The position numbers were made by a program, and so were the translations under genes. The notes under the pieces were generated by a model, which saw only the letters and a program-made list of their open reading frames with translations, was not told where the DNA came from and searched no databases. DNA of 53,323 bases from a virus (lineage: Duplodnaviria > Heunggongvirae > Uroviricota > Caudoviricetes): IMG/VR virus record IMGVR_UViG_3300042564_003265, one strand, 5' to 3'. Positions 1 to 48,842 of the stretch are shown here, piece by piece (within the stretch, counting starts at the first letter, position 1; the number at the start of each line of letters is the position of its first letter).

Positions 1-2610
1 GTTCATATTACTTAATGAACCCGCGCTACCTGTTGTATTCTGATTAAATGTTGGAACTGACGCAGTAATAGTTGAACTGTCTCCAAGTGTTAATGTAACA
101 GTTGAACTTGTAAAACCTAAAGATGATGGTCTTTTATTATATGCGGTATTCCAATTTGATGCAGAACTAATATATGAATCACCAATTGCAGTTGCTTGCC
201 AAGTACCAACGGTAATCGCACCACTCGCAGTAATTCTTAAACCCTCTACATACCCACTACTTGTGTTACCAAATGAGAAGTAATCATTTGCACCGGCATC
301 ATCCGATACCGAGAAGTACATTATTGCGGTATTCGCATTTTCATAGTGTTTTATATAACCTGGGTCATTAGTTTGTGCGGGGAATGTGATTGTTGAATCT
401 GTTCCTGACTTACCAATTGTAATTGCTGCGAATGTTGGTGAACTACTTGTTAACACCGCTTGGTTTAAATATGAACCGAAACCTGTTGTTGATGATAAGG
501 TTACTTGCGAAGAACCTGAAACTAATCCTGAAGGTACTCCTGAAATAGAACCGAACGCCACTTGTGACGAACCTGAGACCAAACCTGATGGTACACCTGT
601 GATTCCACCAAATGAAATTTGTGCAGAACCTGAAACAACTGAAATACCATTAAAGAATGAACCTGAGTGAATCGTTGTGCCGGCAAGTACTTGTGACGAA
701 CCTGACACTAAACCTGACGGAATACCACTAATACTACCAAAAGTAATCTGTGAAGAACCACTAACAATACCTGAAGGTATCCCTGATACACTTCCATAAG
801 TGATTTGTGATGACCCCGATACTGTACCACTTGGAAGTTGTGCAGAACCTGACCATACTCCACTACCATTCAATACTTGACTTGACCCTGATACAACTCC
901 CGATGGAAGTTGTGCGGAACCTGACCAAATACCTGTTCCACTCAACACTTGAGATGAGCCCGAAACTAATCCTGATGGTATGGAACTAATACTTAAGAAA
1001 GTAATTTGAGAAGAGCCAGATACCAATGTTGGTTTATCTGAAATACCATTAAATGATACTTGAGAACTACCCGATACTGTACCACTTGGAAGTTGTGCTG
1101 AACCTGAAACAACACCTGAAGGTAACTGAGCAGAACCTGACCATACACCTGTGGATGTTAATATTGTTGCCGCACTTATAGAACCTCCTAATGATGTACT
1201 ATTACCTGCAATTGTTATTGAACTATTTGTAAGTGAACCATTTCCAATATTTGATAATGTGTTGGATGCTCCACTAATTGTTTTGTTTGTTAAAGCTTGT
1301 GATGCGGTCTTTAACACCACATCATCTTCTGAACCTAAAGGACCTGCAATCCACTTATCATTCGCAGTATCCCAAAGGAATGAACCCGATGTAAAAGTTG
1401 ATGCGGTTGCGTCTCTTACAACGATACCCGCATTAGTTGCTCCCGTTCCGTTAAGTTGAATAATGTTATCTGATAAACTTATCGTTGTTGATTCAACAGT
1501 TGTTGTTAGTCCTTTAACTAAAAGGTTACCCTTTACCGTAACATTGGAACCTGTAAATTCTAATCCTGTATTAACTGAATTGGTAAATGAGTTCAACGAT
1601 GCAGTTGAAGTGTTCAAAGCATTAATTGTAGTTGTGTTACTACTTGTATATGAATTTAAACTACTTGACGCAGTTTCTAACGCCGTTAATCTACCACTAG
1701 CACTTGAAGTGAATGTGTTGAAGTCTGTTCTAATTGAACCACTCGCGCTCTCCAATGAAGTTAATCTACCACTAGCACTACTTGTAAATGTGTTTAAAGA
1801 ACTTGTAGAAGTATGAATTGCATTAATGTTACTTGTATTTGAACTTGTGTATGAGTTCAAACTACTTGTTGCAGTGTGAATAGCGTTAATGTTTGTTGTG
1901 TTTGAAGACGTGTAAGAATTCAAACTACTTGTTGCAGTTTGTAATGTGCCAATAATTGTATTATTACTACCTGTATATGTGTTTAACGATGCCACTGAAC
2001 CAGTAACTCCTTCAATCGAAGTCAATCTACCATCCGCACTACTTGTAAATGAATTTAACGAAGCAGTTGATGTATGAATCGCATTAATGTTTGTTGTATT
2101 GCTACTTGTATATGAATTAAGACTACTCGTTGCTGTGTGAATAGCGTTAATGTTTGTTGTGTTAGATGAAGTATATGAGTTTAAACTACCGGTTGAAGTT
2201 TCAATAGAATTCAATCTACCGTCCGCACTTGAGGTAAATGTGTTTAAAGAACTTGTGGAAGTTTGTAAAGTACCTATTACAGTATTATTACTACCTGTAT
2301 AGGTGTTTAAACTTGAGATTGAACCGGTTACAGTTTCAATTGAATTTAGTCTACCATTTGCACTTGAAGTGAACGTGTTCAGTGAACTCGTAGAGGTTTC
2401 AATCGACGTGAATTTATTGGAGGTGTCTCCGGTAAATGTGTTAAAACTTGAGGTTAGGGTGTATCTTGGTGCAAATGATGCAGTACTCGCATTTGTGGTT
2501 GTACCACTAATATTTGCATTAATTATTCCAAGAACCGTTAAGTCACCCTGTATTTCCGCCGAAGAGGAAACTGATAGGGAGCCCGATATGTGTGCGTCAA
2601 ATATATTCAT
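1..2610 (-). CDS. Ser/Thr-rich tail-fibre-like protein, 3' partial (runs off the window start); paralog of 44424-48791
   Basis: Not in the ORF track. My translation from ATG at 2610 (MNIFDAHISGSLSVSSSAEIQGDLTV...) stays open to base 1 (870 codons). Contains 21-aa SLNSYTSSNTTNINAIHT repeats, PSGxVSGSSQ repeats and LSSTTGFGSYLNQAVLTSSSPTF, identical to the 44424-48791 protein. Confidence 0.85.
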   Translation of the reverse strand, partial: MNIFDAHISGSLSVSSSAEIQGDLTVLGIINANISGTTTNASTASFAPRYTLTSSFNTFTGDTSNKFTSIETSTSSLNTFTSSANGRLNSIETVTGSISSLNTYTGSNNTVIGTLQTSTSSLNTFTSSADGRLNSIETSTGSLNSYTSSNTTNINAIHTATSSLNSYTSSNTTNINAIHTSTASLNSFTSSADGRLTSIEGVTGSVASLNTYTGSNNTIIGTLQTATSSLNSYTSSNTTNINAIHTATSSLNSYTSSNTSNINAIHTSTSSLNTFTSSASGRLTSLESASGSIRTDFNTFTSSASGRLTALETASSSLNSYTSSNTTTINALNTSTASLNSFTNSVNTGLEFTGSNVTVKGNLLVKGLTTTVESTTISLSDNIIQLNGTGATNAGIVVRDATASTFTSGSFLWDTANDKWIAGPLGSEDDVVLKTASQALTNKTISGASNTLSNIGNGSLTNSSITIAGNSTSLGGSISAATILTSTGVWSGSAQLPSGVVSGSAQLPSGTVSGSSQVSFNGISDKPTLVSGSSQITFLSISSIPSGLVSGSSQVLSGTGIWSGSAQLPSGVVSGSSQVLNGSGVWSGSAQLPSGTVSGSSQITYGSVSGIPSGIVSGSSQITFGSISGIPSGLVSGSSQVLAGTTIHSGSFFNGISVVSGSAQISFGGITGVPSGLVSGSSQVAFGSISGVPSGLVSGSSQVTLSSTTGFGSYLNQAVLTSSSPTFAAITIGKSGTDSTITFPAQTNDPGYIKHYENANTAIMYFSVSDDAGANDYFSFGNTSSGYVEGLRITASGAITVGTWQATAIGDSYISSASNWNTAYNKRPSSLGFTSSTVTLTLGDSSTITASVPTFNQNTTGSAGSLSNMN
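500..1150 (-). repeat. Degenerate coding repeats encoding PSG(V/L/I/T)VSGS(S/A)Q units
   Basis: Recurrent gaacctga / gaacctgacca motifs on the + strand; approximate bounds. Confidence 0.8.
1560..2450 (-). repeat. Degenerate coding repeats with ~21-aa period (SLN(S/T)(Y/F)TSS...IHT)
   Basis: Recurrent aaactacttgt and gcattaatgtt motifs; translated units such as SLNSYTSSNTTNINAIHTATS; approximate bounds. Confidence 0.8.
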
Positions 2611-2664: not shown

Positions 2665-3438
2665 TTATTTAGGTAAATAATCAGGAAAATTGGATTTGAT
2701 AAACTGAAGTAGTCTTTTGGAGTATTCTTCGTTGTGTTTTGGGGTTGCGTGCTTACCATCGATAGAAAATTCACGGAAATCCCCATATTCACCATCGAAC
2801 CGATATTTGTCCGAATATTCGTTATCCATTAGGAAAGAACCGTTCCATATATATGGAATATTTCTGTTCTCCAAAAAGTTGGTGATTAGTAGGTGGTTTT
2901 TATACCAATTAATCAAATCGTTCTCATCGTGTGTAATTCTGGCAATTGATTTGTATTCCTCCTTACCTTCAGAATCTTCCTTAAAATAACCCCAAGGTGT
3001 CATATGGAATGGTTCCAACTCACCGTTGTATCTGTAGTATTCTTTACGAGATGGGTAGGTATACATTATGTTAACCAAGTTTGGTCTAATCTTCTGTGTA
3101 AGTGTGATGATACACCTTGCAATATAATCGTTACTCCTACCACCGAACCCTAAGTTCAAATCAACCCCATTACTTATCTGTCTTGAGAAATGATGTGGCC
3201 AGGTTTGGTTGTCACTCACCCCAACACCCTCAGTATGGGAACACCCGACTGACATAATTCTAAATCCGTCTGTGTATAAAGAATCTCCTCTAAACCCCAT
3301 TTCATTGTATGTGTAGGTATTTGTTTCCGACGTGTCAGAACCGGATATGTTGAAGGTTTTATTCCTGCGTTCGTCCAATCTCCAAGAATGGTTACCAACC
3401 TCAAACCCCGAACTTGTCCAAAACTTCATTGACTTCAT
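2665..3438 (-). CDS. SGNH/GDSL-fold protein (esterase or acyltransferase-like)
   Basis: GCSHTEG block I, NLGFGGRSN block II, C-terminal DGKH. Confidence 0.7.
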   Translation of the reverse strand: MKSMKFWTSSGFEVGNHSWRLDERRNKTFNISGSDTSETNTYTYNEMGFRGDSLYTDGFRIMSVGCSHTEGVGVSDNQTWPHHFSRQISNGVDLNLGFGGRSNDYIARCIITLTQKIRPNLVNIMYTYPSRKEYYRYNGELEPFHMTPWGYFKEDSEGKEEYKSIARITHDENDLINWYKNHLLITNFLENRNIPYIWNGSFLMDNEYSDKYRFDGEYGDFREFSIDGKHATPKHNEEYSKRLLQFIKSNFPDYLPK

Positions 3439-4133
3439 ATTAATCTTGTGGTTTTTGTGAAAAAACTAACCATATTCTTATCTGACATATGACAGACACC
3501 GTTTATGTCCATATCATCAAAAGATGGGTTATGGTTGAATAGGTAATTTATATCACTAAAGTATAAATTTAAATATTGTTGGTTTAAGGTTATTGGTGGT
3601 ACGTTATTATATTTTACATTAAAGTATTCATAATTCCTATCCAAGATGTCTAAAACATTTTGGTATGTTTCATTTATTCTTTTGTAGTCATTGGTGGCAA
3701 TTATAGAGGTGTTATTCAACTCATCAAAACTTATAGGTTGAGTCGAATATCTTTCATATATTTCATTGAAACTCTCAATTTGACTTTCTGTTAGTGAGTG
3801 TTTATAACATAAATTCAATTTATTATCATCTATGATATTTTGTAGTTTACTAATGTCCTTCACTATTAAGTCATTATCCAAATGTATGAATGGGAACGAT
3901 ATCTCAGACAATACTTTTAATTTTGGGTAGGACCATATTATGTTTTTTTTATATTTTTCATCCACATCAAACTCCACCCATTCATATCCTAAACTTGTGT
4001 CCCTGAAATAATCTTTATCCGAATAAATCATCGGTTTTATATTCTGATTATTTAAATTCTCAATGGAGTACCTTAAATAAATTTCGGTAACTTCTTTGAG
4101 TCTAACCGGTAGATATGTGAACACAATTTTCAT
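3435..4133 (-). CDS. DUF6734-like putative GT-A nucleotide-sugar transferase
   Basis: WSYPKL...PFIHLDNDL motif with DxD, shared with 14485-15423 and 18531-19556. Confidence 0.55.
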   Translation of the reverse strand: MKIVFTYLPVRLKEVTEIYLRYSIENLNNQNIKPMIYSDKDYFRDTSLGYEWVEFDVDEKYKKNIIWSYPKLKVLSEISFPFIHLDNDLIVKDISKLQNIIDDNKLNLCYKHSLTESQIESFNEIYERYSTQPISFDELNNTSIIATNDYKRINETYQNVLDILDRNYEYFNVKYNNVPPITLNQQYLNLYFSDINYLFNHNPSFDDMDINGVCHMSDKNMVSFFTKTTRLI

Positions 4134-5377
4134 TACAACAACGGTCGTTTTGGTATTGGTTCATCCGTAATTGGACCATTTATAATCATATCCAACATTG
4201 TGTTTTCCTTGTGTAACCTTTCAATAAAAATGTTATGACATTCTAAAATCCAATCCTTACATAGTTGGTAATTGTTATCAAAATCACTAATGAAGGTTCT
4301 TATAAAGTCAGCAAATAGTTTGGCATTTCCTTGATACATTTTGGATTCATCATAAAAAGGATGTTTTCGAATACCTGTTAATTCCATTAAACAATCATAA
4401 GGATATGAATGTGTTGAAACGAATGGGACATTGGCAATGATTAACCCCAATGACTTCTCGCTCAAATATTGACTGTGGTAATCGGCGGAATTATGTGCCC
4501 AAGATTCGTCACAGATTTGAATTTTAGACATTGGTAATATTCTTAAAAAATAATCAAGACCAACAGTTATGTTAGTTAATATTCTTAGATTTTGAAAATC
4601 AATATCGGAGTCGTAGTCATTTAGGAACGCACCTTCAATTTTTCTATACTTTGGTTGTACCGAGTCTTTCTCAATCACATTTGTTTGTGAAACAAATATA
4701 TCTTCAATGTGTGTTAGTTCTTCAGCAATTCTTACTCTAAGTGGTTTATGTGCCCTTACCGAATACCCCATTTTATATTTAGGAACAATTACATCACTAA
4801 TGTTTTTATAATCATAAAACCATCTAATACTAATCATCTCATTCCATTGAAAAATGATATTGGTGAATGGGTTATATAAATTTGGGTGTTTACTTAATAC
4901 AATCTTATTTGTGAAGACGTTATCGGTTAATATGTAATGATTAGTCAGTCTAAGGATTTGATTTTCAATCTCCTCAATTTGACTTGTCCCATCTGTCTTT
5001 ACTTTAGCGGTATCATTTTTTATGAATATTTTTTCAGTTCTAAACAAACAAACTATCCAGTTTTTTTTATCTTCAATTAAATCTGCAATTCTTTCTATAA
5101 TTGCAAATGAATCTGAACCTCTGTGTTCTATACCATCAAAATTCCTATCCTGTCCTCTTTGTCTAAGTGCACCAAAAAAATCAATTATATGAATCCCTTC
5201 TTCATCATTTATTTCAGGATTAAAGGTCACCTCAAAATCTTGTCCCCCATATTCAAATGTAATATCTCTAATGGCACCTTCGGTATTATCGATTTCCGAC
5301 ATTACCTTATTTTTCACATTATGAAAAAACTTTTGGAAAAGAATATCTGTGTAATAATGATGAACGTATATTTTCAT
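4133..5377 (-). CDS. Putative glycosyltransferase-like protein (SEK-x-x-(K)P family, divergent member)
   Basis: C-terminal YLSEKSLGLIIANVPFV resembles motifs in 20286-21557, 23768-25042 and 30388-31671. Confidence 0.4.
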   Translation of the reverse strand: MKIYVHHYYTDILFQKFFHNVKNKVMSEIDNTEGAIRDITFEYGGQDFEVTFNPEINDEEGIHIIDFFGALRQRGQDRNFDGIEHRGSDSFAIIERIADLIEDKKNWIVCLFRTEKIFIKNDTAKVKTDGTSQIEEIENQILRLTNHYILTDNVFTNKIVLSKHPNLYNPFTNIIFQWNEMISIRWFYDYKNISDVIVPKYKMGYSVRAHKPLRVRIAEELTHIEDIFVSQTNVIEKDSVQPKYRKIEGAFLNDYDSDIDFQNLRILTNITVGLDYFLRILPMSKIQICDESWAHNSADYHSQYLSEKSLGLIIANVPFVSTHSYPYDCLMELTGIRKHPFYDESKMYQGNAKLFADFIRTFISDFDNNYQLCKDWILECHNIFIERLHKENTMLDMIINGPITDEPIPKRPLL

Positions 5378-5380
5378 TAA

Positions 5381-5872
5381 TTAAATAAGTTTACTTTTAT
5401 CTCTTTTACCTCTTCTCAATCTACCGGTACCATTTGAATCAAAGATGTCTTCGTAGTATGTAATTGGTATATTGAGGTTTACGGACAACTCGTTGATGTC
5501 TTTATTCCATTTTACTATATCGTTATAACACATTTCGAAAATGTCTGAAGGTACATCTTCATATAGATATGGATTGTTTGAATTATAACTTCTTGTTTTT
5601 GAATAGTAAGTTTGAAACGCGTGGGATTCTACACATTCCTTAATGTTTCTTCTGGTTAGTAATATAACCTCATCAAACTCTTGACTCAATTCTAAGTTGT
5701 TCGGATGATGACAAATAATTGTTTTTACAACTACATCTTTTTCTTTATTGTATATAACTCTATCTGTCCCATCGAATGGTTCAAACAATGGTTTAAATCC
5801 TTTCTCATCCGCAATTTTATTCAACAACGATGTTGAACCAGTTCTTGGTAGTGCAATTATCAACACACTCAT
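5381..5872 (-). CDS. Small sulfotransferase-like P-loop protein
   Basis: N-terminal IALPRTGSTSL (PAPS 5'-phosphosulfate loop-like), FEPF, and LLTRRN 3'-phosphate-binding-like motif. Confidence 0.6.
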   Translation of the reverse strand: MSVLIIALPRTGSTSLLNKIADEKGFKPLFEPFDGTDRVIYNKEKDVVVKTIICHHPNNLELSQEFDEVILLTRRNIKECVESHAFQTYYSKTRSYNSNNPYLYEDVPSDIFEMCYNDIVKWNKDINELSVNLNIPITYYEDIFDSNGTGRLRRGKRDKSKLI

Positions 5873-6435
5873 AACAATGTTTTATTAACTTTAACTCTTG
5901 GGTATTCAAAATCAGTTTCAGTCATCCAAATGTTTAGTGCATATCTTTTACCCTTTGTAACCGGTAGCACTCCGTGATATGTCTGAGAACCATTAAATGA
6001 AATACTATCACCTAATTTTAAATCGCATAACGTGAGACCATCCAATGTTTCGAAATGGAACGGGGGATTTTCTTCTTCAGTTAAAACAAATTGACCCCCT
6101 TCAAAATTATCCGATAAGACAATGACTGTAGTTAGTTCACTCGATTTATCTTTATGTAAATTAAGATACCTACCATCATAGTATGATGTCAAACTAATAT
6201 TAAAATTCTTTAGATTAAAAGTGGAGTAATCAAACCATAATTTAAATTCTTCGTTTTTGTAGTTACCTGTTAATTTATCAATTATTTTCTTTTTAAATTC
6301 ATCATCATATATTCTTCGACAATCCCAATGTTCTGTTGGGTTATAAGAAAATGGTTCCCCAAACTCAAGACAAAAATTAATTATGTCTTTAGCCTCTTCC
6401 CTACCGCAGAAATTGTTATTTATGTTATAATTCAT
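5869..6435 (-). CDS. Fe(II)/2-oxoglutarate oxygenase (prolyl-hydroxylase-like)
   Basis: LHKD...FEGGQF...YHGVLPVTKGKRYALNIW. Confidence 0.85.
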   Translation of the reverse strand: MNYNINNNFCGREEAKDIINFCLEFGEPFSYNPTEHWDCRRIYDDEFKKKIIDKLTGNYKNEEFKLWFDYSTFNLKNFNISLTSYYDGRYLNLHKDKSSELTTVIVLSDNFEGGQFVLTEEENPPFHFETLDGLTLCDLKLGDSISFNGSQTYHGVLPVTKGKRYALNIWMTETDFEYPRVKVNKTLL

Positions 6436-7253
6436 ATCAAATACGAATTTTTAGATTTATTTTGTGTTAATAAGTTATTGTCTGTTATGAATTTATATAA
6501 TTCATCTGCAATTAATTTATAACCATTACTATTTGGGTGTTTACCCGCTGTATTTTCAGTCCATTGATTCTCATCTTCCCATACATCCTTTCTTTTTGTG
6601 TCGATTAATAAATCCGCCATTGTTTTGTCTTTATATCCCCAATAATGAGATTCATCAATCAAATTTGTTTTGTCTATACTATCAATAATATCATTATTAA
6701 TCATAGTGTCAAACGCATCACAAAAAACATATCTAATACCCATCTGTTTGAACATAAATTGTAAATAAAGAACGTAGTTTTGATTTACAATATCGTAATA
6801 GGTATCGGTGTATAGATTGGTAATGAAATAATCCCTATAGTCTTTTTCAAACCTACTGAAGTTTGATAGATTTCCTTTACCTCCTCCGAAAATGTGTTTG
6901 AATAAATGGTTTTTACTTTTGTATCGTTTACCCCAAATAAAAAAATCATCTTCATTGGGAAAGAAAGGTAACGAATCTCTCAAAGATGAGGACCACATAA
7001 TAACAACGAAATCATCTTGATTGATGATTCCGTTTTTTAAATTATGATGTATTGTATTAAAAATTGCGTTGTTGGAAAAACCTCCAACACCATCGTTTTG
7101 AAATTCACAATTAAGTAAATCTGATAGGTGTTTCGGCCAACAATATTTGTGTCTTATAATTGTTCTTTCTTCCGGCACGTCAGTCTTCTCCTCCTCACTA
7201 ATGTTACCACCAACTCCTTCAGTCCAACTATCTCCATATGTGAACAATCTCAT
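6432..7253 (-). CDS. SGNH/GDSL-fold protein
   Basis: YGDSWTEG, GVGGFSN, GKHPNSNGYKLIA. Confidence 0.75.
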   Translation of the reverse strand: MRLFTYGDSWTEGVGGNISEEEKTDVPEERTIIRHKYCWPKHLSDLLNCEFQNDGVGGFSNNAIFNTIHHNLKNGIINQDDFVVIMWSSSLRDSLPFFPNEDDFFIWGKRYKSKNHLFKHIFGGGKGNLSNFSRFEKDYRDYFITNLYTDTYYDIVNQNYVLYLQFMFKQMGIRYVFCDAFDTMINNDIIDSIDKTNLIDESHYWGYKDKTMADLLIDTKRKDVWEDENQWTENTAGKHPNSNGYKLIADELYKFITDNNLLTQNKSKNSYLI

Positions 7254-7256
7254 ACA

Positions 7257-7397
7257 TTAACTCAAATGTTTTTCTTTAATCTTATTCACAACCTCTTGAA
7301 ATGCGGTCGCTACTTTAGTTTTTAAATCATTTGATAATGGTGCAACAATTGCCTTAATTGTTTGTGCTGGTCTTTCTACTTTTTCTTTTACTGCCAT
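7257..7397 (-). CDS. 46-aa hypothetical protein (MAVKEKVERPAQTIKAIVAPLSNDLKTKVATAFQEVVNKIKEKHLS)
   Basis: Below the ORF-track cutoff. ATG at 7397, TAA at 7257-7259; fills the gap between two genes almost exactly. Confidence 0.6.
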   Translation of the reverse strand: MAVKEKVERPAQTIKAIVAPLSNDLKTKVATAFQEVVNKIKEKHLS

Positions 7398-7414
7398 ATT
7401 ATGTTTATTTTATT

Positions 7415-8905
7415 TTAAAGTTTAGGTATCGGCGCATTACTACAACCAGGACAATACCAACTGTTACAATAGTGACCACAATAGTTCCAAGGACACCAAC
7501 ACGTGTTGTGCATCACACTAAAATCACCATCACCAATATCCACTAAGAACAAATCTGAAGATTCGAAGTCCAAACTGTATATAGTTTTTTGTGCGTGTTC
7601 CATCTCTAACCCTGTAATTTCAACAGTGGTTAATAGATTTGTGTCGGAGTCTGTAATTACTAATTTATCACCAACGTACATTTTGTTAACTCTTTCAAAT
7701 CTGGTTGCTGTTGAGCCTGATTCTTCAATATAATAAGTTGCTGATGGTGCATCAGTCCAAGTTCTACCATCCGATAATGTTATTCTGATATAAATGGTAT
7801 CAACCTCGGAAGACACCATACTAACTAAGGTTGTACCTGTTTGTATTAAGGTTGAATTATCTTGAGCAACACTACTATCCCAACCAAAAGTATCAATCTT
7901 ACTTTGTTCAAATTTAGATGCGTGGTTATCATTTAAATCCACATAATCGATAGAACGAACATAATCACCTAATTGAATAGTATCGACATCCAATAATGTT
8001 CCATCGTATTTTAAAATAACACTATCATCATCGGTGTGGTAATCATTCTTTGCGTAATTACCCAATTCTTTGGTGATGTATTTGTATCTACTTTTTTGAT
8101 TCAATTTATTTGTTCCTGCAACAAATTCATCCGATGTAAATGTTAACGGTATAATTGTTGATTGTGTGTATCCACCCATATGAATCACATCCAAATCAGA
8201 ACCATAGATAATATCGATACTTCTAATAATAGAATAACGACCCTCAATTAAGTTGTCCTCTGAAAATATAAATTCTTGTACTAAGTGATTCGCGGGTACT
8301 TCATTTTTTAATGTCATTAGTTCAGTGGCATCAGAAACTCTATAAAGAGCAGGATAATCTAAAGGACTGTAAACCGGATTTCTTGGTTTTACTAATGTAT
8401 TTGGATTCGTTGTTGTTTCATAGTCCGCGTCACCTAACGTATCTAAATTTAAAGAATCAGACGTGAAATATGTCTTTGGAACATATGTTGTTCCACTCAT
8501 TAACACAAAAAATTCAAATTTGTCAGCACAATATGTTTCATCAACCAATGCAGTCGTATCGAACGATTGTCTTAATATGAATTTATCGTTAGAATCTTCA
8601 ATATATGGGACAGTAACAGAATTTAACGGTACCATATAGTCCGTAAAAGATATGTTGTTTTCTAAACATTTCTCCTCCAATATTTTCTTGAATCTATATT
8701 GTTCGGTTAATGGTTTGTACGCATCCCCTTCAGTCCAAATAAAATGAAATTCAGTAATGTTATTACTGACTAACATTGTAAATAAAGAAGTGTAATCTAA
8801 CAAATCTGCTCCCTCATTATATATTGTGGTGTTGGTGTTTATTTCTAAGAATTTCACCGACTCACCTGATTGTAGTAAATCACTACCGATTATAGTTGCT
8901 TTCAT
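7415..8905 (-). CDS. Fusion: circularly permuted ATP-grasp-like domain + Hint (intein-like) domain + C-terminal 29-aa Cys/Trp-rich peptide
   Basis: N-terminal GSD...KFLEINTN, then LVKPR and LVQEFI. Hint block A-like SVILKYDGTLLDVDTIQLGDYV, block F-like IYSLDFESSDLFLV, block G VMHN followed by TCWCPWNYCGHYCNSWYCPGCSNAPIPKL. Confidence 0.8.
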   Translation of the reverse strand: MKATIIGSDLLQSGESVKFLEINTNTTIYNEGADLLDYTSLFTMLVSNNITEFHFIWTEGDAYKPLTEQYRFKKILEEKCLENNISFTDYMVPLNSVTVPYIEDSNDKFILRQSFDTTALVDETYCADKFEFFVLMSGTTYVPKTYFTSDSLNLDTLGDADYETTTNPNTLVKPRNPVYSPLDYPALYRVSDATELMTLKNEVPANHLVQEFIFSEDNLIEGRYSIIRSIDIIYGSDLDVIHMGGYTQSTIIPLTFTSDEFVAGTNKLNQKSRYKYITKELGNYAKNDYHTDDDSVILKYDGTLLDVDTIQLGDYVRSIDYVDLNDNHASKFEQSKIDTFGWDSSVAQDNSTLIQTGTTLVSMVSSEVDTIYIRITLSDGRTWTDAPSATYYIEESGSTATRFERVNKMYVGDKLVITDSDTNLLTTVEITGLEMEHAQKTIYSLDFESSDLFLVDIGDGDFSVMHNTCWCPWNYCGHYCNSWYCPGCSNAPIPKL

Positions 8906-8923
8906 AATTTTTTTTTCCTAACA

Positions 8924-8930
8924 ATAAATA
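8924..8930 (-). promoter_or_regulatory. TATTTAT motif, candidate late promoter element
   Basis: 18 nt upstream of ATG 8905. Confidence 0.35.
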
Positions 8931-8993
8931 TATCTATAAAATTATTAATAGAAAAGGATATTTACTATTTTAGATATATATGTATATATTATT

Positions 8994-9281
8994 TTATATT
9001 ATTGTATTCGTATTTTTTTTGGGTTGTGGCTTCATATGTTCCGAGTCAACATCTTTCCAAAACCCCTTAGTACAAGGGTTAAAGTTTTTAGAAAATACTT
9101 TCTTATTTAATGGACATCCGCAATCCCCACAATATGCCGACCACTTCACCCCCTTCAACACTTCTTTCCTATACTCACAACCCATACACACCCCTAATCT
9201 TTTTTGTGCCAATTCTTCCTGTTCAGTCGTTGGGTTAAACGAGGCCTTCCAAGCGTCAAATATTTCTTTATAGTCTATCAT
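8994..9281 (-). CDS. Small Cys-rich metal-binding protein (DUF6171-like)
   Basis: RLGVCMGC...CGDCGCPL.KK...PC..GFW pattern. Confidence 0.6.
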   Translation of the reverse strand: MIDYKEIFDAWKASFNPTTEQEELAQKRLGVCMGCEYRKEVLKGVKWSAYCGDCGCPLNKKVFSKNFNPCTKGFWKDVDSEHMKPQPKKNTNTII

Positions 9282-10069
9282 ATTAAAGTTTTTTGAGACT
9301 TCGGGAAGTCGTAATAATCATAAATAGTATTGTATCTTTTTATGAATTCGTCATCTAATATTAAATTACATTCCATATGTTTACTTGAATTTACGGAGTG
9401 TAGTTTAAATGGTTTACCTAACTTCTCTGATACCCAATCTTCCAATTTATCCATTTCATTAAAATCAAACCAAATTATGTTTGGGTCGTTATTTGTCCAA
9501 TGAGATATTGGAGTTAATAATATATCAATCATATTAACTGCGTAACCTTTTGTGTTTGATTTAAAAAATTCCTCTTCGGATTTATTAAATTTAGAGGTTA
9601 CTGAGATGTCTATTCTTTCGTCTATTATTTTCAAATCAATTAGAAAGTCACATATAACATCCCATCGTTTTTTTTTATTTATCACATCATCTTTGGTGAA
9701 AAAAAATAATTCATCTAAGGTCATTTTAGAGAAAACATCATAGATTCGATGAAACCCCATACGTTGTAAATCAAACAAAACGTGTTTATATAGTGAATAG
9801 AATCTCTCGTGTCTTTGTCTCTTAACCGCAATAACCGGATACTCAACCCCAAATTTATTCTGTAAATCAACTATCGATTCGTGTCCGTGATAGATGTAGT
9901 TCATTAAAGTACTTTTGTCAATTGATTTAAAATCAATGTCAGCATTTGCAGTTTCCCACTCACCATTATGTGTTTGTACATCAACATCGTTAAGAATACA
10001 AGAATAATGAAATGCTGTAGATGCACATCTCGGTAAACTTAAATAAAAAAACTTATTATCAATTAACAT
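9278..10069 (-). CDS. Sulfotransferase family protein
   Basis: FYLSLPRCASTAFH loop, YHGH, and AVKRQRHERFYSLY (RxPxxRxxSxY-like). Confidence 0.65.
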   Translation of the reverse strand: MLIDNKFFYLSLPRCASTAFHYSCILNDVDVQTHNGEWETANADIDFKSIDKSTLMNYIYHGHESIVDLQNKFGVEYPVIAVKRQRHERFYSLYKHVLFDLQRMGFHRIYDVFSKMTLDELFFFTKDDVINKKKRWDVICDFLIDLKIIDERIDISVTSKFNKSEEEFFKSNTKGYAVNMIDILLTPISHWTNNDPNIIWFDFNEMDKLEDWVSEKLGKPFKLHSVNSSKHMECNLILDDEFIKRYNTIYDYYDFPKSQKTLI

Positions 10070-10638
10070 TACAGTAACGACTTTTTAATTGTTTTTGACG
10101 GCCACACGTTTATTGAATATCTTTCTCCGCCGGTTACCTTATCAACTGAATGTACTATATTCGAATCGAATATGAAAACACTACCTTGTTTCTTATTTAC
10201 AACATAATCGATATCATTCATTCTATATTTCACTTCCCCATCTTCATAATCGTCGTTAAGTTGGATGATGTATGTGATGGTTGCCCCATTTAAAATTTCG
10301 TGACTATCGGGGTGCCAGTCTAAAAAGTCCCCAATTCCGTATCTGTTGAATGAATATTTTGGTACTCCGTTGTATATTATATTATTAAACGGGTTCAATT
10401 CATTTGACAAATCGATTATTTTTTTAGAAAGAGATTTAATTGTTGGGTCCTCTAATGATTCATCGGTAAAATAACAACCCATTCGTTTATTACCCTCATA
10501 TTCCAAATTTTCCGCAATAAGTTTACCATTAACAAAACGTGAAGATTTCATTTGGATTAATTCGGTGGAATTACCTATATCAATAATAGATTTACATTCT
10601 TCCTCCGTTAAAAAATTCTCAATGTATTTTGTGAACAT
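10069..10638 (-). CDS. Fe(II)/2-oxoglutarate oxygenase
   Basis: FLDWHPD...LNDDYEDGE...VHSVDKVTGGERYSINVW. Confidence 0.9.
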   Translation of the reverse strand: MFTKYIENFLTEEECKSIIDIGNSTELIQMKSSRFVNGKLIAENLEYEGNKRMGCYFTDESLEDPTIKSLSKKIIDLSNELNPFNNIIYNGVPKYSFNRYGIGDFLDWHPDSHEILNGATITYIIQLNDDYEDGEVKYRMNDIDYVVNKKQGSVFIFDSNIVHSVDKVTGGERYSINVWPSKTIKKSLL

Positions 10639-11291
10639 TATATTAATGATTTTTCTTTTTTAATGAATTCAAAACCAATGTTACCCGCTAAAACTATCCT
10701 ATCAATTGTTGAGTTGGGTGCGTTATTCGGTGAATGTGGCATATCTGCTTCCATTATTATCAAATCATCTTCCTCAGGTCTAATCCAATACTCTTTTTTA
10801 TTCTTACCTCTAAAATATAAAACACCATCTTCACCATTCATCACATCAGGCATTTGTATGTAATAAACATAAGTGTAGTTTGGTGGGAATGACTTCATTT
10901 CCTTATTAATGTCCGTATGAACGTGAAATTTATCAACACCTTTTAGTTCGTTGTGTTTAAATTGTAATTGTACTGGATTTTGTGAACGAACAACGTTAAC
11001 CCAAGCATCGGTATTAATCTTATTGTATGGTATATTTTTTTCTTCGTAAAGTTCTTTACAAAAATTAATACCTTCTTGAATCACTTTATCTAAATTGGTT
11101 TCGATATTAATCTCACCAATAAAATTTAAATTATTGTTCCATTCTTTTTTGTAACCGAATCCATCGGTTTTCACCTCCGGTTGGGATTCTATGATTAAGT
11201 ATGATTCTTTTAAAAAAGATGACTTATCACTAACCTTATTTAATTTGGTTTTCCATATAAAAGTCGTGTCGTCAAAATATAATTTCTCCAT
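10638..11291 (-). CDS. 2OG-Fe(II) oxygenase-like cupin (HxH type)
   Basis: AWVNVVR, FHVH, YVYYIQMP, GVLYF, MPHSP...RIVLAGNI. Confidence 0.65.
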   Translation of the reverse strand: MEKLYFDDTTFIWKTKLNKVSDKSSFLKESYLIIESQPEVKTDGFGYKKEWNNNLNFIGEINIETNLDKVIQEGINFCKELYEEKNIPYNKINTDAWVNVVRSQNPVQLQFKHNELKGVDKFHVHTDINKEMKSFPPNYTYVYYIQMPDVMNGEDGVLYFRGKNKKEYWIRPEEDDLIIMEADMPHSPNNAPNSTIDRIVLAGNIGFEFIKKEKSLI

Positions 11292-11292
11292 A

Positions 11293-12537
11293 CTATATCA
11301 ATTCCTTTTTTAATACTTTTCTATTCTTTCTGAATATGTTTAAGTAATTGTTCACAAAAAAAGTAAGTTCATTTGGTTCAATTCCTTCTAACTCAAATGA
11401 TTCGAGTAACTCCATATCATTTCTAACCGTTATTGAATTGTTTTTATCCAATATTTTTTTCAATTTCGAAGGGATTGGCATTGATGTACAATCTTTCCAA
11501 AATTGGGTATCGTCTCTCTCACACAAATAATGATATCTAATGAAATTTAAATTCTGTTCATTAATTTGATAACACCACATATTATATTTCTCAACATCCC
11601 CTTCGTCAAAATTAATATCAATTAATTTCTTTAACTGCATAATTGTTGTCATCAAAGAAGTTGCTTCTAACGGCTCTATAAAACCATATGATAGACCGAT
11701 GGAAACTGAGTTACCAATCCAACTTCTTTTATAGGTGCCAGGATTAAAATCAAATACTTTTTGTATTGTAACTTCGTGACCCAAATATTTTTCAACCTCA
11801 CTCTTAGCATCTTCTACGGTTATGTATTTGTTATTGAAAACGTAACCACATCCCCATCTGTGTTGTAGCGGGATTTTAAACATCCACCCACAGTCCATCG
11901 ACGTCATTTCAGTATATGTTTTATCATTTACCTGATATTCATTATCTTGTGGTAGGAAAAACGCTAGCGCTTTATTCATCATAAGATAGTCCGAATAACT
12001 GTACCATTTTTCTTTGTGAACCCCCTCAATAATAAGTCTTGCAAACCCACTACAATCAAATACAAAATCTAAATCAATTATATCACCATCTTTTAATTTT
12101 AACTCTGTGATATTTTCATTTTCATTTACAATACTCTCAACCTCACCATCAACCCACTCAACTCCTCTACTCACCGCAATTTCTTTCAAATATTTTGCAA
12201 CCAATCTTGCGTCAAAGTGATATGCATACGATTTGTTTACTTCATTCGGACCATCACCAAAAAACAAATGTTTTGATAATTCATTTTGACCCGTCCAATT
12301 GTATAAATGTAACCCTCCCTTTACTGTGGATTTGGTTCTTTCAAAAAATTCTTTTTGGTTTATATCCAATAGTGATAACATCTTACCGAAGTTAGATGTT
12401 CCACCTTCACCCGCACCTAAAATTCCTATTTTGGAACTTTCAATTAAAGTAACTTTAGTGTTCCCCCAAAATTTATTTACAACCAATGCGGTTAACCATC
12501 CCGCAGTTCCTCCACCTATTATTACTACTTTTTTCAT
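11293..12537 (-). CDS. Flavin-dependent tryptophan-halogenase-family protein
   Basis: IIGGGTAGW (FAD), GAGEG, TVKGG (catalytic-Lys position), YAYHFDA, GWMFKIP (WxWxIP-like), FIEPLEATS. Confidence 0.85.
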   Translation of the reverse strand: MKKVVIIGGGTAGWLTALVVNKFWGNTKVTLIESSKIGILGAGEGGTSNFGKMLSLLDINQKEFFERTKSTVKGGLHLYNWTGQNELSKHLFFGDGPNEVNKSYAYHFDARLVAKYLKEIAVSRGVEWVDGEVESIVNENENITELKLKDGDIIDLDFVFDCSGFARLIIEGVHKEKWYSYSDYLMMNKALAFFLPQDNEYQVNDKTYTEMTSMDCGWMFKIPLQHRWGCGYVFNNKYITVEDAKSEVEKYLGHEVTIQKVFDFNPGTYKRSWIGNSVSIGLSYGFIEPLEATSLMTTIMQLKKLIDINFDEGDVEKYNMWCYQINEQNLNFIRYHYLCERDDTQFWKDCTSMPIPSKLKKILDKNNSITVRNDMELLESFELEGIEPNELTFFVNNYLNIFRKNRKVLKKELI

Positions 12538-12538
12538 A

Positions 12539-12877
12539 TTACGGTATTAAATGTCTCACCAATATTGTTAATGATATACAAATCCATATTGTGTTGAAAG
12601 CAATCAACGTGGGTAAATCTTTTCTCATTGATGCCCAAATCAATAGTGATGATGTTAGTAAGGTTAGAAAATGCATATACCATAATTCAATACCGAACAC
12701 CAATCCAGGTATGAGAATTATAGCTTTAGTAAACCAAGATGCAAATTCTATTGTATTATAATCTGTCCAATATGATTTACTTAAAAACATTTTATATCTA
12801 TCAAATATTCGTTTCCATCCAATGATGGTATATAAAAATGTAATTGCAATTATAAACGATAATACATATTTCATCAT
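12539..12877 (-). CDS. Small multi-pass membrane protein
   Basis: 112 aa with 3-4 hydrophobic segments. Confidence 0.6.
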   Translation of the reverse strand: MMKYVLSFIIAITFLYTIIGWKRIFDRYKMFLSKSYWTDYNTIEFASWFTKAIILIPGLVFGIELWYMHFLTLLTSSLLIWASMRKDLPTLIAFNTIWICISLTILVRHLIP

Positions 12878-13422
12878 ATTAAATTTTGTTGTGAAGAATT
12901 AGTTTTTATTATTGATACCCAATTAACTAATGAGTATCGTACTCCATCTTCAACCGGAGTAACTCTGTGACGTAAATTAGAATCGAAAATATATAAAGTA
13001 CCTACTTTATTGTGAATAGGTACCAATTCCCCTTTTGGGTTTTTTATTTCAAGTACCCCACCAGTGTAATCATCATTTAGTTGGATTACTGTTGAGGTGA
13101 ATCTATCCATAAAAGTAGTTGAGTCTCTGTCGGTGTGCCAACCATAAAATTCTCCGACTTTATATTCGGTAAACTGAAATGGTCCGAGTCCCGTTACTTC
13201 CATTCCATTAATAATGAATGAGTCTTTGAGTATGTCTTTTAGTTTTTGATTAACATCACCTAAGTCGTTAACCCAACCTACCGACGATTTTCTTTCGTTA
13301 GGGTTTCCACCGATAGTACCCGCAACAGATAAACTAATGTCTTCTTTGCACCTATTTAATATGTGAAAACATTCGTCCTTTGTTAAAAAATCCTCAACTA
13401 CTCTGATTTCATTATTTCTCAC
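12874..13422 (-). CDS. Fe(II)/2-oxoglutarate oxygenase (PKHD-type)
   Basis: QFTEY, GWHTD, LNDDYTGG, RHRVTPVEDGVRYSLVNW. Confidence 0.9.
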   Translation of the reverse strand: MRNNEIRVVEDFLTKDECFHILNRCKEDISLSVAGTIGGNPNERKSSVGWVNDLGDVNQKLKDILKDSFIINGMEVTGLGPFQFTEYKVGEFYGWHTDRDSTTFMDRFTSTVIQLNDDYTGGVLEIKNPKGELVPIHNKVGTLYIFDSNLRHRVTPVEDGVRYSLVNWVSIIKTNSSQQNLI

Positions 13423-25044: not shown

Positions 25045-26811
25045 ATGAAAAAAATATTAATCACAGGCTGTTCAGGTTTAGTTGGTATCCACTTAGTAAA
25101 AGAGACTATTATGCGTAATCATCTCGTTATAGGTGTTGATATTAGAAAATCTGATGAATTACCCGAATCTGACAGATTCAAATTTTACGAATTAGATTTA
25201 ACTAAGGAAGAGAATGTTAGAAAACTATTTGAGGAAGAAAAACCTGACGCAGTTTTCAATTGTTTTGGTGTTAAGGGGTCACCATTAAAGGCTAAAACAC
25301 AACCGGTGGATTTCCTTTACCCATCTATGAAAATAAACACTGAGATTATCCATCAATGTGCCAAAAACAATGTTTGGTTAGTCTTTGTGAGTTCGGTTGG
25401 TGTATATGCACCGGCAGAAAAGTTTCTTGAAACTGATGTGTGGAAAACATTACCATCGGAGAACGATTGGTTCCCTGCTTGGTCAAAGAGAATTGGTGAA
25501 CTATTAATTGGTTCATATAGAAAACAGTACGGTTATAAAAAATGGACCATTGTTAGACCTGCCAATATTTTTGGTGAGTACGATGACTTTAGTGGTAATG
25601 GAACCGTTATTTCAAGTACTATTAAAAAAGTATATGAAGCAGAAGAAGGTAGTGAAATTGAAGCTTGGGGTGATGGTACACCGGTTAGAGATTTCATTTA
25701 TGCTAATGATGTTGCAGTTGCAATTTTAAATTGTTACAAATATAAAATTAATGACATTGTTAATTTAGGTTCAGGTGAAACGATTACAATTAAATCAATG
25801 ATTGAGGAAGTCATTAAGATTAGTGGTAAGAAGTTAACAATTAAATGGGACACCACAAAACCTAATGGTGATATGCGTAGACAGATGGATACAAGTCTAC
25901 AAAACGGTCATCGTTTACTTCCTTTTGTTGGATTCAAAGAAGCACTTAAAAAAACATATGATTACTATGAGAAACATTATGGAAAACTTGATTTGAATTT
26001 AGATATTGAGGAATTTCTTGAAAAGGGATTCTATAGTGGAAAGGTTAGTGAATTCATTAAAGAACACGAATACGAAGATTATAAAAAGAGACTTAAGAAT
26101 ATTATTAAGAAATCAAAAGATAAGGAAGCATATGGGTATCGTTTTGAATTTAGAGTACCAACAGAAATGTCTGAAGAGGGGTTTGATTACTCTAGAACGA
26201 TACCTGCAGAGGAAATACCTGCAAGATGGGAATTTCAGAAAGAAAAGGGATGGGATGTTGTTCAAACTTGGTGGGAGTTAAGAGACACTAAGAATATCTT
26301 TAATGATGATTTATTTTATTTTAGAGATAAAGTTTGTCGATTCCTTCATAAGTTATATCCTGGCTTAAAAGAATGGAATATTGGACACAATGACGGTTTA
26401 ACAATATATGAAAACGGTGATTTCATTGAACCTCATATTGATGGTCAAAATCCTAATAGATTTTGTGTTGTATTAATTTACTTATCACCTGAAAAAGAAT
26501 ATATTGATGGTGGTGGAAAATTAATATTACAAGATAAAGGATATTATGATGAGGTAATTCCTGTTGACGTAAATTTTGCAATATTAGATTTCTCAAAGAA
26601 TAATCCTAATCACGCAGTTGAGGCAGTAAAAAATGATTTCGTAAGATACACCTATATTAACTTCATCGAAAGAAGAGAATTCGGTCCACCAAAAAGATAT
26701 ATAGGTGATGAAGAAGTAATTGAAAAATGGGAACCCGATACTGATGTAACATATAGTTCACCATTTCAAATAAAAAATGAAACAGAAGAAAAAGTTAAAA
26801 AATTAATATGA
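25045..26811 (+). CDS. Fusion: GDP-fucose-synthase-like SDR + C-terminal Fe(II)/2OG oxygenase domain
   Basis: ITGCSGLVG, RPANIFGEYD, WGDGTPVRDFIY; then IEPHIDG...GGGKL...NHAVEAV...RYT. Confidence 0.8.
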   Translation: MKKILITGCSGLVGIHLVKETIMRNHLVIGVDIRKSDELPESDRFKFYELDLTKEENVRKLFEEEKPDAVFNCFGVKGSPLKAKTQPVDFLYPSMKINTEIIHQCAKNNVWLVFVSSVGVYAPAEKFLETDVWKTLPSENDWFPAWSKRIGELLIGSYRKQYGYKKWTIVRPANIFGEYDDFSGNGTVISSTIKKVYEAEEGSEIEAWGDGTPVRDFIYANDVAVAILNCYKYKINDIVNLGSGETITIKSMIEEVIKISGKKLTIKWDTTKPNGDMRRQMDTSLQNGHRLLPFVGFKEALKKTYDYYEKHYGKLDLNLDIEEFLEKGFYSGKVSEFIKEHEYEDYKKRLKNIIKKSKDKEAYGYRFEFRVPTEMSEEGFDYSRTIPAEEIPARWEFQKEKGWDVVQTWWELRDTKNIFNDDLFYFRDKVCRFLHKLYPGLKEWNIGHNDGLTIYENGDFIEPHIDGQNPNRFCVVLIYLSPEKEYIDGGGKLILQDKGYYDEVIPVDVNFAILDFSKNNPNHAVEAVKNDFVRYTYINFIERREFGPPKRYIGDEEVIEKWEPDTDVTYSSPFQIKNETEEKVKKLI

Positions 26812-29986: not shown

Positions 29987-30391
29987 TTACCAACTAATTT
30001 CCCAGTCCTTAAATTCGGCAGCTAAACAATCAATTTTATAATCTTTTCTACCACCAACAACTTCTTGGATTTTATTTTTAGCGGTATTTCTAATACCATT
30101 CAATCCGTGTGTTAGTTCTAATTGATTACCTTCTTTGATTCCCTTACGATAGTTTGATTCATTGTGCCAAATGTGTAGATTCATTTGAGATAGAACAACA
30201 ATAGCTCTAATAGTTTCGGAGGTAATCTTACCATCATTTTCATTAAGTAATAATTGAATGTCGTGTAAAATGTCGTTAATCTCCTGTGCATATTCTTCCT
30301 TGTGTTCCGTAATAAAAACCTCTTTTAATTGTGAGATACTTAATCTATCAACTAATTCTGCTAATGTTGGCAAATACTTTCTTTCACTCAT
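29987..30391 (-). CDS. Helical hypothetical protein, DUF6165-like
   Basis: TLAELVDRLSISQLKE resembles the ELIDKITILEIK-type motif. Confidence 0.45.
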   Translation of the reverse strand: MSERKYLPTLAELVDRLSISQLKEVFITEHKEEYAQEINDILHDIQLLLNENDGKITSETIRAIVVLSQMNLHIWHNESNYRKGIKEGNQLELTHGLNGIRNTAKNKIQEVVGGRKDYKIDCLAAEFKDWEISW

Positions 30392-42880: not shown

Positions 42881-42883
42881 ATA

Positions 42884-43705: not shown

Positions 43706-43714
43706 AAAAATATT

Positions 43715-44422: not shown

Positions 44423-44423
44423 A

Positions 44424-48791: not shown

Positions 48792-48792
48792 A

Positions 48793-48834
48793 ATTTATTA
48801 GTTTCACTGTCCACTAATGTGTTACTAATAAATA
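48793..48834 (-). promoter_or_regulatory. TATTTAT motif (48828-48834) overlapping a 10-bp inverted repeat that reaches to 1 nt before the start codon
   Basis: ATTTATTAGT (48793-48802) and ACTAATAAAT (48824-48833) on the + strand. Confidence 0.45.
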
Positions 48835-48842
48835 CTTACTTT

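Follow-up and report, generated by a model that had tools for sequence, protein, structure and literature searches.

A phage gene joining a permuted ATP-grasp-type ligase, a Hint domain and a cysteine-rich peptide: a possible self-processing precursor

What use could a phage make of an enzyme that carries, on the same polypeptide, a domain of the self-cleaving Hint type and a short cysteine-rich tail? This question is raised by one gene in the IMG/VR record IMGVR_UViG_3300042564_003265, of which a single stretch of 53,323 nt (the window) was analyzed. The gene encodes a protein that we call P0001, an open reading frame (ORF) of 496 aa without a stop, made up of an N-terminal ligase-like domain, a Hint domain ending in His-Asn, and 29 residues that follow this motif. 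A reading made from the sequence alone, without database searches, had described these three parts and proposed that the protein cuts off its own tail. Translation confirmed the layout and all the motifs on which that proposal was built, among them LVKPR (with Lys173) and LVQEFI (residues 208-213), and its interpretation as a whole is partly supported by the analyses reported here.

The reading that we favor, to which we give somewhat better than an even chance, is that P0001 is a self-processing phage precursor composed of a ligase, a one-way Hint domain and a Cys-rich peptide that is released. Asn467 would cyclize and the Asn467-Thr468 bond would break, leaving the ligase-Hint portion with a C-terminal succinimide and freeing a 29-mer with a new alpha-amine; from the residues that are retained, we regard this release as probable. 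The freed peptide would be a six-Cys mini-protein, probably with three disulfides, having a flexible linker and a Lys-Leu-COOH end, and the chances that the three disulfides form after release appear about equal either way. In the least certain step, the fused ligase would make one amide bond on the tethered or just-released peptide, at the C-terminal carboxylate, at the only Lys or at the newly formed N-terminal amine; that an end of the peptide or its Lys takes part in such a bond is a tentative proposal that we place a little short of even. Oxygenases, a halogenase and a radical S-adenosylmethionine (SAM) enzyme encoded nearby, which share a C-terminal tag described below, would act on the same peptide or complex, a suggestion that we make with similar reserve.

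The probable ligase-Hint-peptide precursor is widespread in phages. Homologs of P0001 numbered 574 at 90% clustering, almost all of 492-499 aa, and 261 cluster representatives at 50% identity, among which full-length matches reach as low as 24% identity; 240 relatives were found in IMG/VR. Conservation was assessed in 106 diverse homologs that are 21-84% identical to P0001, and counts out of 106 refer to this set. Searches of Pfam, PHROGs and PDB sequences with P0001 as a single query gave no match, and no relative was found either by tblastn and megablast against 50,697 phage records or in a scan of one genome per prokaryote species. The family has so far been seen only on viral or metagenomic contigs. 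A full-text literature search covering ATP-grasp together with Hint, Hint together with ribosomally synthesized and post-translationally modified peptides (RiPPs), and related subjects found no description of it.

We examined the ligase domain through its predicted structure. An AlphaFold model of P0001 built on a 106-sequence alignment had a mean predicted local distance difference test score (pLDDT) of 89.3 and a predicted template modeling score of 0.84, and only residues 474-496 fell below a pLDDT of 50; 24 close sequences alone had given a pLDDT of 43. The top match of the N-terminal domain was YgiC (7uka; Z 10.0, 202 aligned residues, model 1-280 to chain 94-378; VIA-align), and E. coli glutathionylspermidine synthetase GspS (2io7) matched with Z 9.2 over chain 310-608 (VIA-align). 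Other permuted matches, spanning model residues 1-280/282 with Z 7.5-8.9, were homoglutathione synthetase 3kaj (Z 8.7), glutathione synthetase (GS; 8.5 and 7.5), trypanothione synthetase (7.5) and the fungal Cp1B 9cjn (7.9), and Foldseek likewise matched the domain to YgiC/YjfC (E ~1e-5). The classical ATP-grasp enzymes RimK, LysX, ArgX and TTLL11 aligned only from residue 49-51 (Z 6.0-6.7), as would be expected if the two Mg-binding strands, which usually lie at the C-terminus, had been relocated to the N-terminal end. The same motif order is found in YgiC (D102, E115 and N117, then VVKP, then QQF), with hhalign pairing D9/E21/N23 of P0001 to those three residues (E 0.01, not significant alone), and the family profile aligns Asp9...Glu21-x-Asn23 to the same motif in biotin carboxylase and Ddl (E ~1). 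Asp9, Glu21, Asn23, Arg112, Asp122 and Arg228 are invariant in 106/106 sequences, and Lys173 is present in 104. All homologs share the N-terminus M[KR]xhhhGxD, and the permuted order is therefore no artefact of truncation. Significant Pfam membership (GSP_synth, GSH_synth and similar families) was not found for this domain of P0001, and the 106 N-terminal domains gave only sporadic sub-threshold Pfam matches (ATPgrasp_ST in 3, RimK in 2, GSP_synth in 1).

Judged on the model, the N-terminal domain is confirmed at fold level as a circularly permuted ATP-grasp carboxylate-amine ligase of the GspS/YgiC/eukaryotic GS type. The sequence-only reading had reached the same assignment from the N-terminal placement of the metal ligands and had looked to structure prediction of each domain for a decision; both the ATP-grasp and the Hint folds were recovered in this way. 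Characterized ligases of the GspS/YgiC/GS type phosphorylate a carboxylate, often the C-terminal one of a short peptide, and then couple an amine to it. Candidate roles for the ligase are head-to-tail cyclization of the peptide, addition of an amine or polyamine to its C-terminal carboxylate (as in YgiC and GspS), acylation of its Lys or N-terminus, and a reaction on tagged C-termini. YgiC/YjfC have been named peptidyl-polyamine synthetases (PMC12568646).

The Hint domain (from residue 285/290 to 467) aligned with BIL2, the NpuDnaB intein, the bacterial intein-like (BIL) domain of C. thermocellum and Hedgehog over 136-146 residues, with Z-scores of 15.3-15.9 and root-mean-square deviations of 1.9-2.5 Å. 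Foldseek gave target-normalized TM-scores of 0.76-0.78 against Hedgehog and BIL, and the family profile found the KlbA intein by sequence (E 1.9e-8), as well as Hedgehog and BIL; a PF07591 search did not detect the first Hint of P0001. Residue 290 superposes on position 1 (Hedgehog Cys258, RecA intein Cys1) and Asn467 on the terminal Asn. At position 1 the 106 sequences have His (32), Gly (18), Lys (16), Ser (9), and also Ile or Leu, and never Cys; no column of block B (376-395) contains more than 3 His, the block-F column 444 contains no Cys, and the position following Asn467 (+1) varies over the family (A, P, V, G, Y, S and others). Intein splicing of classes 1-3 is ruled out by these residues. 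What has been retained is His466 in 101 sequences and Asn467 in 105, along with block F, comprising Tyr443, Asp446, Glu448 (83/106), Asp/His451 (99/106) and Phe/Tyr453 (101/106). Ratios of nonsynonymous to synonymous substitution rates (dN/dS; pooled Nei-Gojobori, 45 unsaturated pairs) rose from 0.076 in the Hint to 0.125 in the ligase, 0.20 in the tail and 0.45 in the linker after the last Cys, and since the Hint value is the lowest in the gene, this domain is no decaying relic. C-terminal cleavage by Asn cyclization does not require a nucleophile at position 1 of a Hint domain. The domain keeps the residues for Asn cyclization, and we infer that this is the only Hint chemistry left to it. 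In type A BILs, cleavage and ligation both proceed with no +1 nucleophile (PMC4031507). The Hint fold, the His at position 1, the lack of a block-B His and the intact His-Asn, all noticed from the sequence beforehand, were borne out by the structural alignment (Z up to 15.9) and by the columns of the 106 sequences.

The tail of P0001 contains 6 Cys, 3 Trp, a single, penultimate Lys and no Asp or Glu. The 76 close relatives have 54 distinct tails, with 6 Cys in 75 of the relatives and 8 in the remaining one; a single Lys is present in all 76 and is penultimate in 71 (KL in 36, KI in 20, KV in 9, KA in 5, KR in 1), while the +1 position is Ser, Thr, Gly, Ala, Pro or Asn. The Cys framework of this clade is invariant, x-CWCPW-xx-CG-xx-C-xxxx-C-xx-C, and is followed by a Gly/Pro linker of variable length and then by Lys-hydrophobic-COOH. 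From its sequence, this arrangement has the form that would be expected of an end reaching into an active site. The lack of Asp and Glu, from which the sequence-only reading had concluded that the C-terminus is the peptide's only carboxylate, holds for this copy and for 41 of the close relatives, but not for the clade, as the other 35 carry 1-3 acidic residues. Non-Cys positions of the tail are 46% identical within the clade compared with 69-71% in the two domains, so that the tail, apart from its conserved Cys, evolves more quickly than the enzyme, in agreement with the pattern suggested at the outset for homologs. A tail that is hypervariable within the close clade, like a RiPP core, was rejected because the Cys framework and CWCPW..CG are conserved there; hypervariability is seen only family-wide. 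Positive selection on the tail was likewise unsupported (dN/dS 0.2-0.45).

In the wider family, the sequence following the first His-Asn fell into five classes. Only a Cys-rich tail of 21-84 aa, hypervariable in sequence, was present in 60/106 members; a second canonical Hint (Cys1 ... His-Asn, then K, KK or KKF) in 21; a chaperone of the S74 type with an SD...K motif in 7, of which six have it after a Cys peptide usually ending in Lys; a short tail of 3-7 residues in 8; and other long sequences in 10. The Cys count was even in 60/60 members of the tail-only class (6 in 31, 8 in 20, 10 in 6, 12 in 2 and 4 in 1), all 60 tails had at least one Lys, and in 44 of them a Lys lay within the last four residues. 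Six of the 21 second-Hint members have a Lys-free peptide of 27-35 aa, containing 6 or 8 Cys, that fills the exact interval from the first His-Asn to Cys1 of the second Hint. Here the Cys peptide is bracketed by two self-cleaving modules, and this layout is the strongest comparative argument for a unit meant for excision. The remaining 15 have linkers of 0-7 residues and up to three tandem Hints; P0230, P0245, P0247, P0262 and P0264, for example, contain two or three tandem canonical Hints 0-6 residues apart, end in His-Asn-Lys and have no Cys peptide. The PT-HINT and Intein_splicing profiles match the extra Hints of relatives (PT-HINT on P0230), and the Pfam match of the S74 domain was weak (E 0.007, below cutoff). 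The second Hints of the long relatives are type-A-BIL-like and, by the mechanism published for BILs, could cleave the peptide or join it to the terminal Lys by aminolysis. The mechanism proposed for BILs is an aminolysis of the thioester by the freed alpha-amine (PMC4031507).

The Cys peptide is a common payload rather than a universal one, given the eight tails of 3-7 residues and the ~15 homologs with tandem Hints only. The sequence-only reading had counted on the tail and the His-Asn being general among homologs, and this was so in part: most of the members just named keep His-Asn, whereas three of the eight short-tailed ones (P0178, P0182 and P0221) have Tyr-Asn or Tyr-Ser in its place. 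As the sequences stand, the conserved core of the system may be the ligase, a one-way Hint and a C-terminal Lys, with the Cys knot as its commonest cargo.

Several observations weigh against the self-processing precursor as we have outlined it. Sequence similarity to ATP-grasp enzymes is limited to the Mg motif (profile E ~1; hhalign E 0.01), and the arginine of the R-x-D motif (YgiC R100, Cp1B R139) is replaced by Gly7 in P0001; the invariant R112 and R228 might stand in for it. The tail has a pLDDT below 50 and AlphaFold does not dock it in the ligase, its dN/dS indicates relaxed purifying rather than positive selection, and disulfides are not expected to form in the bacterial cytoplasm. Moreover, some homologs without a Cys peptide keep the ligase and, in most cases, His-Asn and the Lys, and for this reason the essential substrate of the ligase may not be the Cys knot.

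If the peptide is released, the ligase could close it head to tail: it would phosphorylate the carboxylate of Leu496 and the freed alpha-amine would close the backbone, giving a cyclic cystine-knot peptide, a phage analog of the cyclotides, which are similar to the P0001 tail in size and Cys count. In the second-Hint relatives the activated C-terminus would be supplied by the Cys1 thioester, in a natural SICLOPPS-like arrangement. Such a reaction is in keeping with the action of GspS, GS and YgiC on peptide C-terminal carboxylates (PMC12568646 for YgiC/YjfC), with the flexible Gly/Pro linker between the last Cys and the C-terminus, with the order of His-Asn, peptide and Cys1-Hint in six representatives, and with the BIL mechanism just cited (PMC4031507). 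However, it leaves unexplained the universal, usually single, near-terminal Lys, the retention of the ligase in relatives having a thioester-forming Hint, and the members with tails of 3-7 residues, and no docking of the tail is seen in the model. We consider cyclization unlikely as the function of the system.

A different role for the ligase domain is suggested by the C-termini of the surrounding genes. The ending K-x-[LI]-[LIF] recurs in the window, where 16 of the 51 ORFs end in [LI][LIF], usually with Lys before it, compared with an internal frequency of such dipeptides of 2.9% (P 8.5e-13). At least 14 otherwise unrelated enzymes are tagged in this way, with ends such as ..KSKLI, ..NKTLL, ..KKELI and ..KVKKLI, and in 75 IMG/VR loci, 688 of the 1516 ORFs no more than 10 kb away from the fusion gene end in the same way. 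The distant loci L003-L005, whose fusion proteins are ~25-45% identical to P0001, have the tag as well. Tagged proteins comprise the oxygenases, the halogenase, a radical-SAM-like protein, a fusion of a short-chain dehydrogenase/reductase (SDR) with an oxygenase, a DUF6071 protein, a 95-aa protein and several unknowns; the tagged enzymes are of types that modify peptides or proteins. The nucleotide-sugar enzymes, glycosyltransferases and structural proteins are untagged. The tag was absent from 13 ORFs (halogenases, 2-oxoglutarate (2OG)/PhyH oxygenases and neighbors) of HTVC008M and P-SSM2, two phages without the fusion gene. P0001 itself ends in ..PKL, which resembles a shortened tag. The tag on neighboring enzymes, the universal Lys and the doubly bracketed peptide of relatives all go beyond what had been noticed from the sequence alone.

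The ligase domain could thus be a hub that recognizes K-x-hydrophobic-COOH ends, either docking the tagged enzymes or ligating such ends to an amine (the freed peptide N-terminus, a Lys, a polyamine, or a virion or fiber protein). Besides the distribution of the tag, the Lys-Leu/Ile end of the peptide itself, the binding of peptide C-termini by YgiC-type enzymes and the proximity of the gene block to tail-fiber genes agree with this proposal. On the other hand, the tag could address some other receptor or process, such as degradation, localization or packaging, and phylogeny confounds its link to the fusion gene, as the comparison covered no more than two phages without the tag. We hold a hub of this kind to be improbable as a full account of the gene, and to about the same degree as cyclization. 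Taken further, and in a form that is doubtful as a whole, the two ideas of precursor and docking would reverse the leader principle of RiPPs: the enzymes would carry the recognition tag and the substrate the receptor, the precursor would be its own scaffold, to which a dozen or more unrelated tailoring enzymes, including sulfotransferase-like proteins, would be drawn by their tag or which would act on them through it, and the product, finished by the ligase, possibly backbone-cyclized or conjugated, and disulfide-knotted, would be released by freshwater and marine phages.

Alternatively, nothing may be released, and P0001 may work as an intact enzyme in which the Hint is an inactive structural module and the Cys tail binds zinc or another metal or has a redox function. 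In its favor, Hint position 1 and block B have lost their catalytic residues, Cys clusters are usually metal-binding in a reducing cytoplasm such as the one in which P0001 is produced, and the tail contains CxC and CxxC motifs. But His-Asn and block F have been kept at 93-99% while all other catalytic positions of the Hint drifted, 6 and 10 Cys are no multiples of 4, the tail is hypervariable family-wide in length (21-84 aa) and in sequence, relatives have a second self-cleaving module on the far side of this peptide, and eight representatives are entirely without a Cys tail. This makes a permanently intact protein quite unlikely in our view. That the Hint is a selfish intein or BIL insertion without a role for the host gene is very improbable: the Hint fold and the tandem extra Hints of some relatives are compatible with it, but the first Hint lies at the same place in nearly every member of the searched set, is the most constrained part of the gene, and, having neither a homing endonuclease nor a nucleophile at position 1 or +1, cannot splice.

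The self-processing precursor that we prefer is encoded in a same-strand block of tailoring-type genes (Table 1). Its two closest neighbors form a cassette with it in ~90% of loci, the 95-aa ORF being upstream in 65/71 IMG/VR loci and the 46-aa ORF downstream in 64/73; no Pfam family was found for either protein. A complex prediction for the ligase-Hint portion (1-467) with the 95-aa neighbor scored 0.02, a value that says nothing about binding either way. Every examined locus has 2OG-Fe(II) oxygenases alongside the fusion gene. Virion proteins are a further possible target of the tailoring enzymes.

Table 1. Positions of the P0001 gene, its parts and other features of the window.
Feature	Position	Strand	Basis
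Whole gene, ligase-Hint-peptide protein P0001	7415..8905	-	Translation and 574 homologs
Ligase domain, residues 1-285	8051..8905	-	Fold match of GspS/YgiC/eukaryotic GS type and conservation
Asp9...Glu21-x-Asn23, ATP-grasp Mg2+/phosphate motif at the N-terminus	8837..8881	-	Translation, profile alignment, invariance
Lys173 (LVKPR), presumed ATP-binding lysine	8387..8389	-	Conservation; role inferred from the canonical ATP-grasp 'vvKP' motif
Hint domain, residues 290-467	7505..8038	-	Fold, profile, column statistics
His290 of YHTDDD, Hint position 1	8036..8038	-	Translation
His466-Asn467, predicted Asn cyclization site, scissile bond Asn467-Thr468	7505..7510	-	Translation, conservation, intein alignment
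29-aa tail, residues 468-496 (six-Cys knot region 468-488, Gly/Pro-type linker, Lys-Leu-COOH)	7418..7504	-	Translation
95-aa six-Cys (CxxC...CxxCGC...C) zinc-ribbon-like upstream partner, tag end ..NTII	8994..9281	-	Aligned in window, L001, L003, L004
46-aa downstream partner ending ..KHLS	7257..7397	-	Aligned in window, L001, L003, L005
Tailoring-type same-strand block around the fusion gene	2665..13422	-	Pfam, C-termini
First ORF of the block, ends ..DYLPK, untagged	2665-3438	-	C-terminus
Tagged 2OG-Fe(II) oxygenases (four)	5869-6435, 10069-10638, 10638-11291, 12874-13422	-	Pfam
Tagged flavin halogenase	11293-12537	-	Pfam
Tagged DUF6071 protein	6432-7253	-	Pfam
Tagged unknowns	3435-4133, 4133-5377, 5381-5872, 9278-10069	-	C-termini
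Tagged SDR-2OG fusion	25045-26811	+	Pfam, C-terminus
Tagged unknown	30388-31671	-	C-terminus
Tagged radical-SAM-like protein, end ..KPNII	31671-33125	-	Weak Pfam match below cutoff
Second radical-SAM-like protein	33889-35307	-	Weak Pfam match below cutoff
Tandem GT7-type glycosyltransferases (two)	35304-38161	-	
Fiber-like/virion genes	1-2610	-	
Fiber-like/virion genes	41222-53240	-	

The source is a region of an uncultured freshwater phage of low GC content (~31%), with virion or fiber-like genes at both ends of the window and a long run of tailoring and sugar enzymes inside it. Near-identical DNA was found chiefly in lake-water and freshwater metagenomes (17 DNA runs, 15 studies), and related contigs reach 324-333 kb. 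Short metatranscriptome contigs from three river and freshwater libraries match both ends of the gene, and two of these contigs are exact matches, one to 7391-7639, a stretch that takes in the tail, and one to 8728-8875; the contigs were not counted as proof of expression, because DNA carry-over is possible. The nearest cultured relatives of the halogenase are in T4-like Kyanoviridae (pelagiphage HTVC008M, 35%; cyanophages, ~31%). This 414-aa protein aligns to the cyanophage and pelagiphage halogenases only to about residue 350-375, and the ~40 residues at its end, the tag among them, are confined to this phage group.

Other genes of the window were also inspected. The SDR-2OG fusion is a single frame of 588 aa, in which an NAD-dependent sugar epimerase/reductase is joined to a 2OG-Fe(II) oxygenase ending in ..KVKKLI. 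The two radical-SAM-like proteins are each of ~480 aa, and the two glycosyltransferases are tandem paralogs that each have a LamG/concanavalin-like domain. The virion-type genes that bracket the enzyme block include a coiled-coil open frame of 870 aa, a protein with a Gly-rich domain, and proteins of 1455 and 1098 aa with virion-structural PHROG matches.

If both the cleavage and the ligation are true, this would be a large natural Hint family (261 clusters at 50%) that keeps only the Asn-cyclization half-reaction and uses it to free a small peptide; we know of no described natural Hint family that is restricted in this way. It would also mean that large aquatic phages spend ~10 kb or more on a decorated cysteine-knot peptide, for which roles in host takeover, competition, virion decoration or metal binding are conceivable. 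Should the enzyme tag be a docking signal, it would represent a new way of assembling a biosynthetic complex. In biotechnology, a compact Hint domain limited to C-terminal cleavage, combined with a ligase acting on peptide ends, could be useful for tag removal, peptide release and cyclization.

Of the systems with which P0001 can be compared, GspS (2io7), YgiC/YjfC (7uka/7uk6), the GS and homoglutathione synthetases and Cp1B are like it in having the permuted fold, with D...E-x-N placed before the ATP-binding Lys. YgiC is close in motif spacing as well, whereas the P0001 domain is only ~285 aa long, lacks the first ~90 residues of YgiC and has Gly at the R-x-D arginine. What sets P0001 apart from all of these ligases is that its chain continues into a Hint domain and then into the likely substrate. 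For the pairing of enzyme and peptide, the RiPP ligases of ATP-grasp type are its nearest analog. Graspetides such as the microviridins, and pheganomycin with its ligase PGM1, combine a ribosomal peptide, an ATP-grasp ligase that makes amides or esters, and tailoring neighbors, as does the P0001 locus. In graspetide-type RiPPs a short leader is cut by a separate protease and the ligases are classical, non-permuted ATP-grasp enzymes, while the "leader" of P0001 is a 467-aa enzyme-Hint portion, its release would be autocatalytic, and most close tails are without the Asp/Glu that graspetides need. The likeness to a RiPP precursor is one of context, given by the conserved cassette, the four 2OG oxygenases, the halogenase and the radical-SAM-like genes. 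Cyclotides, at ~30 aa and six Cys, resemble the tail in size. The order of parts in SICLOPPS (IC-peptide-IN) is mirrored by Hint-peptide-Hint in six relatives, but the two Hints of these relatives are separate whole domains rather than intein halves, and P0001 itself is without a second Hint.

In function, the closest analogs are type A BILs and pre-toxin HINT domains. Type A BILs (Amitai 2003; Dassa 2004; C. thermocellum 2lwy; Tetrahymena BIL2 6y75) share with P0001 the Hint fold (Z 15.5-15.9), the terminal His-Asn and the lack of a +1 nucleophile, and in them cleavage dominates over splicing. They have Cys1 and an N-terminal thioester, however, where the P0001 Hint has His (Gly, Lys or Ser in relatives) and no block-B His. 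By its residues, the P0001 Hint is like the C-terminal half-reaction of type A BILs but outside their definition, as Cys1 is missing. The pre-toxin HINT domains (PF07591) follow the same logic, with a Hint just before a variable C-terminal payload and a predicted release, but carry a toxin enzyme as payload and a secretion or filament partner at the N-terminus, in contrast to the Cys peptide of 20-80 residues, the ligase partner and the phage setting of the P0001 family. The Peptidase_S74 chaperone of phage tail fibers and endosialidases, with its SD...K motif, directly follows the Cys peptide in some relatives and is absent from P0001. We know of no other ATP-grasp ligase that is tethered covalently to its presumed substrate through a self-cleaving joint. 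The parts of P0001 are of known kinds, and none of the compared systems joins a ligase, a Hint limited to C-terminal cleavage and a Cys peptide in one chain; there is a substantial chance that this arrangement represents a new biosynthetic logic.

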